Shown here piece after piece: positions 1 to 48,286 of a stretch of DNA of 64,000 nt. Origin of the DNA: an uncultured Gemmatimonadaceae bacterium (GTDB taxonomy: Bacteria; Gemmatimonadota; Gemmatimonadetes; Gemmatimonadales; Gemmatimonadaceae). The stretch's first letter is position 1, and each line of letters opens with the position of its first letter. The translations under genes and the position numbers were made by a program. The stretch is taken from assembly GCA_963740355.1 (NCBI GenBank), contig CAVUDW010000002.1, positions 256,001 to 320,000 of the forward strand, given 5' to 3'. The notes under the pieces were generated by a model. It saw nothing but the letters and a program-made list of their open reading frames with translations, did no database searches and was not told the origin of the DNA.

Positions 1-2
1 AC

Positions 3-518
3 TCGCCGGGCGATCAGCGGTTGGTGGCGTACGTCGTCCCGGCCGAGGGCGCGGCCGTGGCCTCGGAAGGGCTGCGTGCCCTGTTGCGCTCGCGGCTGCC
101 TGAATACATGGTGCCTGCGACGATCGTCCCGTTGGCCGAGCTGCCGCTCACGCCGAACGGCAAGATCGATCGGAAGGCGCTCCCGGCGCCGGCCGCCGTG
201 CGACCCGCTGCCGCGACCGCGTCTGACACCGTCATGACCGATCCGCAGCGTCGTGTTGCCGCCATCTGGCGCGACGTGCTCCGCATCGAGCACCTCGGCG
301 TCGACGACAACTTCTTCGACCTGGGCGGACACTCCCTCCTCGTCGTGAAGGTGCATGCGGCCCTCCGACGTGAGTTCCAGAAGGAGCTCACCCTCGTTGA
401 CCTCTTTCAGCATACGACCATTGCTGCGCAAGCCACTCTCGTTTCGTCCGAGGCCACCGATCGTGGCGCGTCCGTCCAGAGGGCGCGCGCACGCGCGGCT
501 CGGCAAGTCCATGTCTGA
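3..518 (+). CDS. NRPS C-terminal fragment (end of A domain + PCP), 5'-partial
   Basis: Frame open from position 3 (SPGDQRLVAYVV). Has LPEYMVP, the A10 motif LPLTPNGKIDRKAL and the PCP motif DNFFDLGGHSLL. True stop may be at 555 (see findings). Confidence 0.93.
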   Translation, partial: SPGDQRLVAYVVPAEGAAVASEGLRALLRSRLPEYMVPATIVPLAELPLTPNGKIDRKALPAPAAVRPAAATASDTVMTDPQRRVAAIWRDVLRIEHLGVDDNFFDLGGHSLLVVKVHAALRREFQKELTLVDLFQHTTIAAQATLVSSEATDRGASVQRARARAARQVHV

Positions 519-551
519 GCAGTCGCTGCGGCGTGCACAGGGAGTCGAGGC

Positions 552-46900: not shown

Positions 46901-47372
46901 TTCCACCGCACGCAACGTGGCGGCGTTGCCGCTCGACAAGGCTCGCCTGCCGCAAAACCTCGGCGTGTTCTTCGAGCGCTTGCTGGTGAAGGAGTCCAAG
47001 CAGGCCGCGCGCGGTAACACAGCGGGTGTCGACGTACTGCGACAGATCACCGACGCCACTCCCGAGGCACGTGAGGACATTCTCCGCGTTTTCCTCACCG
47101 AGCAGATCGTCCGTGTGCTGGCCCTCTCGTCGGCCAGTCGCGCACGTCCCGATCAGTCGCTGATGGACATCGGCATGGACTCGCTGACGGCGATGGAGCT
47201 TCGCAACCGTGTGCAGGGTGCGGTGAAGGTTCGCCTCTCGGTCGCCGACCTGCTGCAGGGACCGACGATCAATCAACTGACGACGATGATCCTCGGTGAA
47301 CTGGACTTCGGCACTGACGCCGTGGTCGCCGCCGTCGATGCAAGCGCCAGCTGGGAAGAAGGATCGTTGTGA
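40899..47372 (+). CDS. PKS module M6: KS-AT(malonyl)-DH-ER-KR-ACP with C-terminal WEEGSL motif
   Basis: Intact 2157-aa ORF: DTACSSS, GHSVG, HAFHS, DH HRIYESPLFP and HPALLD, ER HAATGGVG, KR VVDDG and FSS..YAAAN, ACP GMDSLT. No TE. Confidence 0.95.
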   Translation: MTEPQQPDYRALLKRSLVAIDKLEGKLAAIESAKAEPIAVVGMACRFPGSSNDLASFWKLLHTGTDAVTVVPAHRWDAEASYDTDPDVVAKSYTKWGAFIDEVETFDASFFGISPREAVSLDPQQRLLLEVTWESLEHAGIAPSSIAGTRAGIFVGISTLDYANMIGEHVGLRNGDAYSASGSAHSIASGRLSYFLGVHGPNYVVDTACSSSIVAIHNAIISLRNGETGLAIAGGVSLTLSDVGSILTSRARMMSFDGHCKTFDESADGYVRGEGCGMVVLKRLSDAERDGDRILAVLRGSAINQDGRSSGLTAPNGTAQEAVIRDALSNARLSPKDISVIEAHGTGTPLGDPIEMKALGAVFGDRSTDKALLVGSVKTNIGHLEAASGVAGLIKVILAMRAGVVPPHLHFKNPNHLIPWDALPVRVPTAPTEWVTEPGVPRRAGVSSFGFSGTNSHLIVEEAPAPKLGAQVGRIARPQLLVLSAQTTTALRQQAERYAAFLQLAQGVELGDIAFTAATCRSHLPERLTLVAEGADSAADQLSRFVADEEVPGLAVGRFTSGTAPEIGFLFSGQGAQYPGMSRELYETEPVFRAALDACATIADGLLPSPLIPVILGDEGVRELLDDTAFTQPALFAVEYALAQLWKSWGVEPAIVMGHSVGEYVAACLAGVFSLEDGLRLIAARGRLMSVLPRDGSMVAVFASRERVASALRGHEADVDIGAVNGPTNTVISGRTHAVDAILNTLAAEGIEFARLNVSHAFHSPLMDPMLDEFERIASTVTYAAPSIGLVSNVTGRMAGAEVATAAYWRQHVRAAVQFTDSIATLHAENIHTFLEIGPSPVLVGMGQRCDGAEQSSWLPSLKKGRSDRASMLESVGRLHVGGQPIAWSAVCDAGARRVDLPTYPFQRERYWFDSMYRPPVQQAVSGRSTGHPLLGDRIASPMRLYQTALSIATTPWLSDHRIYESPLFPVTGFLELAMAAGRHAIGTDDVALSNVSLREGLTIPEPGAVTMQVIVTPHDDGTQQVQVFSDTADDADGAGETEWRLHLSATVARSSVAAPPAGLRALPSEGRSERDVPEYYKKLHEQGAYYGPAFRGITSIARSADQVLGHVRLPDESATDSEKYFVHPALLDSCVQLIGVGLPWADDPRSTDDICVPVGLASYHVYRPAVTDIWCHVESVRPNASNSSITSDFVLTDVNGEIVARVEALEMHRVTRAAMQKVNDKPVKPDWMLEVEWQASPMETAAIPASGKWLVVTDGGTLAGSLATQLGAKGASVFVASHATEFAATAAGWSIDVTDASHYKRLFAEASTRDAAPWQGVVSMVGAHPVLVTDDNETLHRAHTLRIAALLAMLPAVVEAGARFSIVTHGTQAVGDVVPDLADAPIWGLANVVASEYPALRVTRIDMDTAPRKDDAELLAAALTIGDSEDRVALRGGQRYVARLAQGVLRSVDAMPPRRLEIMERGILENLQLNVVPREAPGVGEVEIRVYATGLNFRDVLNALGMYPGDPGPLGNECSGVITAVGEGVDDLFVGDEVVTMIDRSFATYVLAPAMQTVRKPANLSFVEAATIPVTFLTAEYALSHLAGMKAGDKVLIHAATGGVGMAAIQLARRAGAEIFGTAGSPAKRAMAQALGCHHLSDSRSLVFADDFDRITNGDGVDIVLNSLAGDFIPTSLRLLKRGGHFIEIGKTGIWDKETVAQSFPGVSYHPLYLGEVTAAEPQFMRTMLQRLMDDFESGALTPLPQRVYPLERAEEAFRFMGQGLHTGKIVITQHRTPEVRDDASYLITGGLGGLGIACAQWLAGLGARSLVLLGRRAPTPEVERQLAELRASGVTVTVASCDIANEREIAEVLELVRTALPPLRGILHAAGVVDDGMLPEQTVARFERVMAPKVQGTWNLHQLTRSLPIDFFVLFSSGAALLGSPGQGNYAAANSFMDAVAYVRGAQGRHGVSINWGSWAEVGMAAEVGEAHRRRWASQGLGMIAPADGVRMLQDILQRSTARNVAALPLDKARLPQNLGVFFERLLVKESKQAARGNTAGVDVLRQITDATPEAREDILRVFLTEQIVRVLALSSASRARPDQSLMDIGMDSLTAMELRNRVQGAVKVRLSVADLLQGPTINQLTTMILGELDFGTDAVVAAVDASASWEEGSL

Positions 47373-48286
47373 ACGACGGGGCGTTCGTCGACTCACGGGC
47401 CAAGAGTGTGTCGGGCCCTGATCGTCGGATTGCCATGTTGCTGATGGCCCTCTTCGCCGTGCTCTGGGCGGTGCTCGAGGACGAACTCGGTGTGCGGCTG
47501 CGACATCCCTACGATCTCACGGAGATCGTCTGGTTTCGATATGCCACGCACCTGCTGGTGGTTGGGTTGGTGTGGGGCGTCCGCCAACCCACGACCTTCT
47601 GGCGCACCTCACGCCTCGGACTGCAGCTCGGTCGATCAATCCTGATGCTGATCATGCCGGTGAGTTTTGCACTGGCGGTGATGCAGGGGGCGCCGGCGAG
47701 CGCGGTCTGGGCGGTGTTCTGGTCGGCACCGCTGATGATCGTGTGTTTTGCACGCGTGCTGTCGCCAGAGCGCGTTCCAGCCTGGGTCTGGGCCGTGACG
47801 ATCGCCGCCTCGCTTGGGGCGATCGCGATGGTTGGACCGCGCGGGCTGCCGGGTGGCATGGGCGCCGTCTGGCCAGTGCTGATGGCCGCGTCATTCGCGC
47901 TCTATGTCGTGCTGACGCGCACGCTGCGCACCGAGACGTTGTCAGCGAATCTCTTCTACACGGCCGTGGGTGTGATCATTCCGCTCAGCGTCTATGTGCC
48001 GCGCATCTGGGTCATGCCATCGCGGCATGACGCGGTGATCCTCTTCGGCATTGGGGCGCTTGGTTTTCTCGCGCTGCTGGCGCTCGATCGTGCCGCTGAG
48101 CGCGCCGAGGTGTCGCGTACGGCGGCCTTTCTCACGCTGCAGGTGGCCGCGGTGTTGTTCATCAACTGGTCGCGGCAGACGGCGCAGTTCTCGACAGTGA
48201 CGCTGGTTGGTGCGCTGCTGGTTGTGTCGAGTCTGACCGCGCTCTGGTTCGCCGGCACGCGCGTGAGACTGGCGGATCCCCGATAG
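47369..48286 (+). CDS. EamA/DMT-superfamily membrane transporter, possible product exporter
   Basis: 305 aa, about 10 hydrophobic segments, EIVWFRY and LQLGRS patterns typical of DMT permeases. GTGA overlap with M6. Confidence 0.8.
   Translation: MNDGAFVDSRAKSVSGPDRRIAMLLMALFAVLWAVLEDELGVRLRHPYDLTEIVWFRYATHLLVVGLVWGVRQPTTFWRTSRLGLQLGRSILMLIMPVSFALAVMQGAPASAVWAVFWSAPLMIVCFARVLSPERVPAWVWAVTIAASLGAIAMVGPRGLPGGMGAVWPVLMAASFALYVVLTRTLRTETLSANLFYTAVGVIIPLSVYVPRIWVMPSRHDAVILFGIGALGFLALLALDRAAERAEVSRTAAFLTLQVAAVLFINWSRQTAQFSTVTLVGALLVVSSLTALWFAGTRVRLADPR

Follow-up and report, generated by a model that had tools for sequence, protein, structure and literature searches.

A hybrid cis-acyltransferase PKS/NRPS gene cluster of Gemmatimonadaceae with a possible pass-back branch

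Several biosynthetic assembly lines join their proteins through beta-hairpin docking domains (docks) that receive short linear motifs (SLiMs). The accessible part of PMC9113145 describes such junctions for TubC, EpoB, enacyloxin Bamb_5915 and rhabdopeptide Kj12ABC, gives short acidic C-terminal motifs as the known partners of these docks, states that one SLiM can recruit several docks and presents the rhabdopeptide line as an iterative system with three docks and two tails. Repeated use of modules has been described elsewhere, as pass-back for thalassospiramide in the portion of bioRxiv 10.1101/560987 that was available and as a proposed reuse of PepB/PepC for pepstatin in that of PMC12081711. 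Here a hybrid polyketide synthase (PKS)/nonribosomal peptide synthetase (NRPS) gene cluster of an uncultured Gemmatimonadaceae bacterium is described. It was identified in a stretch of 64,000 nucleotides (G000:C2:256001-320000, hereafter the window) of a source genome (G000) of 5.45 Mb, five contigs and 65% G+C. The cluster spans approximately 56 kb (G000:C2:248682-304286), starting some 7.3 kb upstream of the window, and was compared with its relatives in genomes G004, G006, G012 and G267 and in extracted loci, which bear L-numbers.

As a hybrid cis-acyltransferase (cis-AT) PKS/NRPS cluster of cyanobacterial and myxobacterial style, it is of a well-known kind. It departs from the usual layout in four features: a gene encoding two docks and two condensation (C) domains ahead of a single adenylation (A) and thiolation (T) domain, a variant with tandem docks in locus L036, a pair of alpha/beta-fold proteins with Cys and Arg at the nucleophile position, and a His at the catalytic Tyr position in the ketoreductase (KR) domains of two PKS modules. 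The locus belongs to a real orphan cluster family of Gemmatimonadaceae, probably intact and provisionally taken to be uncharacterised. That it is a functional cluster with a pass-back branch, marred by consensus errors in the assembly, is a reading on which we place about even weight.

Docks and condensation domains of gene A

Gene A (G000:C2:251551-256518, + strand, 1655 aa) was found by Pfam analysis and translation to encode dock1-C1-dock2-C2-A(Gly)-T. Only its 3' end lies in the window (1-518, +), with the C-terminal subdomain of the A domain (AMP-binding_C) and the T domain (PP-binding). It is followed by gene B (552-5126, +), a PKS module with a short N-terminus and the order ketosynthase (KS)-AT(HAFH, malonyl type)-KR-acyl carrier protein (ACP), ending ...GDREEFEL, and by gene C (5123-8452, +), which encodes a TubC_N beta-hairpin dock-C(HHIAVDS)-A-T and carries no docking tail. 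Condensation, AMP-binding and PP-binding domains scored above the Pfam cut-offs in the NRPS modules, with HHxxxD motifs present. The dock family TubC_N (PF18563; cut-off 26) gave 95.7 bits over two stretches of gene A and 48.2 bits in gene C. The A-domain code of gene A, DILQLGMIWK, which we take to be a glycine code, has eight residues invariant in 14/14 homologues, and gene C has the Gly-like code DILQIGGVYK (DILQIGAVWK in G004 and G006). From these codes, gene A is predicted to add glycine and gene C a Gly-like residue; the code positions were read with motif rules rather than computed by a tool.

Each of the three docks (dock1, dock2 and that of gene C) is conserved in orthologues, and both HHxxxD motifs and seven residues of dock2 are invariant in 14/14 gene A homologues, down to 45% identity. 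An assembly artefact fusing two genes was rejected as the origin of this layout, as a single frame of 1397-1732 aa was found in 7/7 orthologues and in 77 of the best 120 matches. Only two tails are available for the three docks. The last PKS protein, encoded by gene L, ends ...WEEGSL in the window and in G012, ...WESGSL in G004 and ...WESGVL in G006, and the pattern W-E-[ES]-G-x-[LI] closes the last PKS in 8/8 loci with a dock1-type domain, even where the PKS is encoded convergently. The tail of B is ...REEFEL in the window, G012, G004 and G006, and REE[FI][EV][LF] in all seven loci where the end of B could be seen.

Further layouts were provided by a distant relative from another family of the same order (G267:C4:96001-149358, L024-L026) and by a metagenome scan with A-domain patterns, which returned 80 loci, mostly generic Gly modules, L027, L028, L030, L036 and L043 being informative. 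G267 has J-, K- and L-like PKS genes, with the PKS before its NRPS ending ...VWEEGSL. Its NRPS consists of a dock1-type dock-C-A-T, whose code DFWNIGMVHK is presumably that of threonine, followed by C-A(DILQLGMIWK)-T and then D and E, without module B. The ordinary first C domain of this NRPS is the orthologue of C1 (46% identity, 367-380 bits, vs 234-248 bits for C2). L027 resembles the window and L030 resembles G267. In L036, a PKS ending ...EWEEGTL is followed by one protein in which tandem docks, one of dock1 type and one of dock2 type, precede a lone C-A(Gly)-T, and then by B (...REEIEF), gene C and D. L043 combines a PKS tail of REE type (...SREELTL) with a dock2-type dock only, and L028 encodes dock2-C-A followed by KS-AT.

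Over ten loci, a dock2-type domain occurs in 8/8 with module B and is absent from 2/2 without it. The W-E-[ES]-G tail accompanies dock1 in 8/8 loci, and the single locus whose PKS has a REE-type tail has no dock1. The simplest reading of this pattern is that dock1 would receive the last PKS, while dock2, like the dock of gene C, would receive B. Because dock and tail types covary across the ten loci, module B may return the chain to gene A, which we regard as roughly an even call. Furthermore, C2 lies nearer to the C domain of gene C (34-35% identity, 257 bits) than C1 (26-27%, 131-140 bits), which fits a shared donor type.

Under the proposed mechanism, the tail of L (WEEGSL) would dock on dock1 and C1 would join the acyl chain to glycine on the T domain of gene A. 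Module B would then extend and reduce this intermediate to a 4-amido-3-hydroxybutyryl thioester. Here the line would branch, for the tail of B (REEFEL) could dock on gene C or on the internal dock2. In the latter case C2 would put the chain onto a fresh glycine and the A-B pair would run again. The Gly module of A and module B would in this way form a loop, entered by dock1/WEEGSL and repeated or left according to how dock2 and the dock of gene C compete for REEFEL; in this complete form the proposal is tentative and carries less than even confidence.

Some observations weigh against pass-back. The ten loci on which the pairing of docks and tails rests are related and do not represent independent events, and overall identity does not group the docks by type (dock2 with the gene C dock 35%, dock1 with dock2 31%, dock1 with the gene C dock 33%). 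Translation in L036 could begin from an internal ATG at dock2, which would remove dock1. The dock2 of L043 may serve the PKS alone, in which case that of the window family could be a leftover or could hold the dimeric PKS at a second point.

These points lead to the foremost alternative, a strictly linear line of the same order that adds one Gly, one ketide and one Gly-like residue (n = 1), with dock2 and C2 contributing no step. Either the two docks would each hold one copy of the tail on the dimeric last PKS, or dock2/C2 would be the remnant of an L043-like ancestor. PKS modules are established to be dimers, modular lines run linearly by default, L043 and L028 make do with a single dock2-type dock and a single C domain, and overall identity draws no sharp line between the dock types. 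However, dock2 and both HHxxxD motifs are invariant in 14/14 homologues, with identities as low as 45%, the two docks are of different types that track different tail types, and a second catalytic C domain would be superfluous for a bivalent grip. Linear use is rated unlikely, while keeping an appreciable share of our confidence. A role of C1 as a chain-release domain, as in the idea drawn from enacyloxin Bamb_5915 and crocacin, was also considered and rejected: in G267 and L030 its orthologues stand first as ordinary C domains, each paired with an A domain of its own, the D/E pair is present in G267 too, and the neighbours of C1 in the PDB are ordinary C domains.

A literature search found no description of a dock between two C domains of one protein, nothing relevant on tandem condensation domains among the matches listed, and nothing on PDB entry 8Z0Q. 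If the loop is true, the family would make lipo-oligo(4-amino-3-hydroxybutyrate) peptides of variable length, a product class that, with its docking-encoded rule of iteration, has not yet been described, and the family is spread through Gemmatimonadaceae and, by the names of database metagenome-assembled genomes (MAGs), other soil and sediment phyla. The layout itself (dock-C-dock-C before one A-T, two tail types and the tandem-dock variant) provides a testable rule for docking-programmed reuse of NRPS-PKS modules, of relevance to the engineering of assembly lines.

Frame breaks and distribution of the cluster family

Three of the PKS genes, all on the + strand, are interrupted by one-base breaks. 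Frameshift-aware alignment with the G012 orthologues, which are 65-86% identical, showed 13 of these: one in H (15559-22132; an extra base near 17905), ten in J (26544-34183; near 28414, 28746, 28897, 29091, 29317, 30278, 30403, 30980, 31359 and 31480) and two in K (34184-40902; near 35747 and 37278). None was found in B, C, G, I or L. Contigs from two public sediment-metagenome runs were compared over window positions 17500-37499 and gave ten indel rows, eight of which (seven places) lie no more than 3 nt from a break and act in the frame-restoring direction. These indels, at 28411, 28894, 29088/29089, 30281, 30403, 30980 and 35745, cover 7/13 breaks, a match far beyond chance given 13 targets in 20 kb. 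The orthologous genes of G004, G006, G012 and G267 are each a single open frame. Outside the cluster, a czcA/acrB-like efflux gene (G000:C2:244500-247662; L001:8500-11662) has two one-base breaks, near L001 positions 8859 and 9241, relative to an intact orthologue 88% identical to it, which points to indel errors throughout the assembly. Among the flanking genes aligned in this manner, the acrB-like row was usable, the S9, OEP, ECF and TonB rows being spoilt by the stop-to-stop ends of the queries.

Since seven breaks coincide with restoring indels, the orthologues are intact and the nearby efflux gene is broken too, the frame breaks are most likely consensus errors of the long-read assembly. 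Weighing against this, the rows shown offer no read evidence for six of the 13 breaks, and the public contigs derive in part from related strains (91-99% identity), which leaves a small probability to a decayed allele in the source strain. The initial annotation had named real frameshifts in a silent locus as the counter-case to its reading, and the contigs that restore the frame argue against it. A decaying, silent cluster in which all 13 breaks are real would suit their uneven spread, with ten falling within 3.1 kb of gene J, as well as the breaks lacking read evidence and the strains behind some of the contigs. It is very improbable in view of the restoring indels, the similar damage to a non-cluster gene and the intact orthologues in four other genomes. 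Moreover, each of the 13 is a one-base indel, and identity to the G012 orthologues amounts to 68-79% for the broken genes vs 66-77% for the unbroken ones. Frame breaks in clusters from long-read MAGs should be checked before they are called decay.

The host had been placed in Gemmatimonadota, and this was borne out by a flanking non-cluster protein (59310-62723, - strand), for which all 14 organism-named matches among the best 120 are Gemmatimonadota, mostly Gemmatimonadaceae. Organism-named homologues of gene A come mostly from Gemmatimonadales/Gemmatimonadaceae MAGs. Orthologues of gene A were found in 7/19 other genomes of the genus (C1 identity 52-56%), the second C domain always being in the same frame, and with the source genome included the cluster family is present in 8/20. 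Among 400 sampled other genomes of the phylum, one has a gene A orthologue at E <= 1e-90. In a large protein collection, 77 of the best 120 matches, counted manually, are full-length homologues (at least 96% query coverage, 45-95% identity), MAGs labelled Vicinamibacterales and Pseudomonadota being included, and such homologues are common in metagenomes. No pathway name is attached to any of the best 120 homologues of gene A, consistent with the earlier remark that the module series is not that of a recognised pathway. Among the matches listed (15 of 51) in a literature search on Gemmatimonadota PKS clusters, none shows a natural product with an assigned gene cluster. Given the presence of the family in 8/20 genomes of the genus and the 77 full-length homologues, a product would give access to the chemistry of a lineage common in soil and sediment.

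The orthologous clusters have 6, 7 or 8 chain-building PKS modules. G012 has the same six as the window, while G006 has five plus two convergent modules and G004 six plus two. The convergent modules (G004:C7 and G006:C5; L011-L018) are two extra KS-AT-dehydratase (DH)-enoylreductase (ER)-KR-ACP genes, accompanied by an EamA gene, on the opposite strand. G004 also possesses one extra first module. This variation in module number across species forms a natural series in which the growth of such lines could be traced.

Predicted chain, release and surroundings of the cluster

Thirteen + strand genes (A to M), mostly with overlapping stop and start codons, occupy window positions 1-48286 according to the listing of open reading frames and Pfam scans. 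They encode seven cis-AT PKS modules and two NRPS modules, one of the latter truncated by the window start. The module count, the six one-module PKS domain sets, the NRPS-PKS-NRPS block, the type II thioesterase and the transporter proposed in the initial annotation all match the Pfam scans, which add that one NRPS module extends upstream. That annotation had seen no starter/loading genes and no phosphopantetheinyl transferase (PPTase) in the window. A Sfp/HetI-like PPTase gene does lie just upstream (G000:C2:250616-251365), while a loading module was not found in the cluster.

The active-site Cys-His-His is kept in 7/7 KS domains and GHSxG was read in 7/7 AT domains, PF00698 (AT) and PF00550 (ACP) scoring above cut-off. 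A motif script showed the DH, ER and C-methyltransferase (cMT) motifs in their modules, the standard HxxxGxxxxP motif not being found in the DH of L. Gene G (10918-15552, +) encodes the first PKS module, KS-AT-KR-ACP. Its AT has the motif VASH (methylmalonyl type) with a RIDVIQP-type upstream motif, the nearest solved structures being the methylmalonyl/ethylmalonyl ATs of the lasalocid and erythromycin synthases. Gene H encodes KS-AT(YAFH)-DH-ER-KR-ACP, gene I (22129-26547, +) KS-AT(HAFH)-cMT-ACP without a KR, and gene J KS-AT-DH-cMT-ER-KR-ACP, whose AT motif is unreadable at the frame breaks. Gene K encodes KS-AT(HAFH)-DH-cMT-KR-ACP and gene L (40899-47372, +) the last PKS module, KS-AT(HAFH)-DH-ER-KR-ACP, with the tail ...SWEEGSL. 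The malonyl-type HAFH motif is thus shared by B, I, K and L. An LDD-type KR motif, which goes with dehydration, is present in H, J, K and L and absent from B and G.

No loading domain or KSQ was identified in the cluster, G beginning with a Cys KS and a short N-terminus. The source genome has only one other type I PKS-like KS (G000:C2:933448-934563; 39% identity, in a 2235-aa frame). Gene G would start the chain by adding a methylmalonyl-type unit and leaving a hydroxyl. Gene H would add a saturated C2 unit; gene I would add a C-methylated unit with retention of the ketone, as it has no KR; J would add a C-methylated saturated unit, K a 2-methyl-enoyl unit and L a saturated C2 unit. With an assumed acetate starter, the predicted chain is 13-hydroxy-4,6,8,12-tetramethyl-9-oxotetradec-4-enoyl. 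The methyl-branched chain with a hydroxyl, a ketone and a methyl-alkene, joined to a peptide/ketide head, that had been proposed previously is supported by the domain and motif readings.

This prediction has two weak points. Both the starter and the AT specificities assigned to G and H are themselves predictions. Furthermore, alignment to the KRs of SpnB and MAS showed that the KRs of J (33392-33420) and K (40072-40100) have a His at the place of the catalytic Tyr (..SNHAAAN..). This His recurs in the orthologues of both genes in G012 and in those of J in G006 and G004, with the DH/ER motifs behind the KRs intact. Either this His may serve as the acid, or the KRs may be dead and the predicted chain wrong. 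Among the matches listed in a literature search, nothing on KRs that carry such a Tyr-to-His exchange was evident.

The order of the line is suggested by its docking elements. Aside from the tails of L and B, the remaining PKS proteins end in helix-type ...SD(D/E)E... tails, and no conserved tail closes the T domain of gene C. An N-terminal docking helix, present in H to L, is missing from the PKS encoded first after the thioesterase gene; the G orthologue of G004, which is preceded by an extra module, does carry one. From the C-terminal tails, the dock types and the absence of this helix from G, we infer the order G-H-I-J-K-L, A, B, C, with off-loading after C. On this docking order the PKS genes would act before the NRPS block though encoded after it. 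A line colinear with the genes, starting at A, B and C and ending at L to give a peptide-primed polyketide, would follow the gene order itself and suit the short N-termini of the B and G KS domains, as expected behind an NRPS, but is hardly credible given that the T domain of gene C lacks a conserved tail, that L carries a beta-hairpin-dock tail conserved even where L-type genes are convergent, that the dock and C domain at the start of gene A need an upstream donor, and that the D and E hydrolase genes lie behind gene C in 5/5 genomes.

No thioesterase (TE), R or terminal C domain was found behind gene C. Gene D (8449-9234, +) encodes an alpha/beta-fold protein with Arg at the position of the nucleophilic Ser (G-I-R-L-G), and gene E (9231-10181, +) an alpha/beta hydrolase with Cys at the nucleophile elbow (G-L-C-S-G), a candidate off-loading enzyme. 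Alignment to solved alpha/beta hydrolases placed these Arg and Cys residues at the nucleophile position in 4/4 genomes, and such a pair also stands behind the NRPS genes of G267 and of metagenome loci L051 and L083. Gene F (10094-10954, +; true start probably ~10178) is an ordinary stand-alone type II thioesterase (PF00975; 163.7 bits vs a cut-off of 26.4). After gene C has added the second, Gly-like residue, the Cys-hydrolase E would take the chain off, with D as a non-catalytic, Arg-bearing partner; the acceptor at release could be water, an internal hydroxyl or another group. The predicted product is an N-acylated Gly-ketide-Gly-like lipopeptide, putatively acyl-[NH-CH2-CH(OH)-CH2-CO]n-Gly-like acid with n of at least 1.

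Export of this product may involve an EamA-family transporter, an ABC-type protein or both. The EamA protein is encoded by gene M (47369-48286, +), which is translationally coupled to L, and an EamA gene adjoining the last PKS genes is kept in relatives. The ABC-type protein (G000:C2:248682-250619; L001:12682-14619) has 645 aa, with a Wzt/TagH-like ABC ATPase as its C-terminal half and no Pfam family matched by residues 1-290. A 61% identical counterpart precedes gene A in G004 and was not found in the G006 stretch.

Downstream of the cluster, window positions 48466-59084 encode PepSY_TM, an alpha/beta hydrolase (-), LspA (-), an S9 peptidase with TPR repeats, an ECF sigma factor (-) and a TonB-dependent receptor (-). 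As the long frame of the S9 gene runs across LspA on the opposite strand, its true start lies later. The flank from LspA to TonB is conserved in G006, where PepSY and the alpha/beta hydrolase were not found. A hint of siderophore function in PepSY_TM, ECF and TonB was rejected as weak, the ECF/TonB/S9/LspA genes being a conserved flank in G006, PepSY absent there and no chelating building blocks predicted. An IS110-family transposase gene (63227-64000, -) is truncated by the window end.

Comparison with known systems

The best NCBIfam matches of D and E are exosortase-A-associated hydrolases 2 and 1 (TIGR03101 and TIGR03100), with scores far below the curated cut-offs (96.7 vs 202.75 bits and 73 vs 168.45 bits). 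Like D and E, those hydrolases are an adjacent alpha/beta-fold pair; the cluster differs from them in lacking an exosortase context and in having Arg (D) and Cys (E) at the nucleophile. With the curacin and jamaicamide systems (CurL, PDB 4mz0) the cluster shares CurL-like KS-AT linkers (PF22621), present in 7/7 modules, and methyl branches from embedded cMT domains, CurL being the second-best PDB match of the G KS. GNAT loading, HMG-type beta-branching and a terminal TE are absent from the cluster, and identity is at the family level only.

The nearest logic that can be named is that of crocacin. The crocacin pathway of Chondromyces crocatus reportedly joins a polyketide acyl chain to Gly, extends it by PKS, caps it with a second Gly and releases it in a non-standard way; its glycines are said to be separated by two PKS extensions with dehydration, and its last T domain to be fused to a C-like domain that releases the product by hydrolysis. 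On this description, the two would share the acyl-Gly-ketide-Gly logic, non-standard release and cis-AT modules of myxobacterial/cyanobacterial style. In contrast, the window has one KR-only module between the Gly units, and gene C ends 11 residues after its T domain without a fused release domain, release being tentatively assigned to the Cys/Arg hydrolase pair. The crocacin pathway is the subject of Mueller et al., Chem Biol 2014.

In the use of an amino-acid and malonate module pair to build a 4-amino-3-hydroxy acid unit more than once, as we infer for the cluster, it would resemble the thalassospiramide and pepstatin systems. A dedicated second C domain with its own dock, as in gene A, is not described in the accessible portions of those two sources. 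The closest parallel for the junctions is provided by the beta-hairpin systems, the cluster having three PF18563 docks before C domains and acidic/hydrophobic C-terminal tails on its ACPs, with PDB matches 6cgo and 5t7z running through the dock. It differs from them in its internal dock between two C domains, the tandem docks of L036 and PKS ACPs as partners. Like the rhabdopeptide system, so far as the available text of that source describes it, the cluster combines three docks with two tails.

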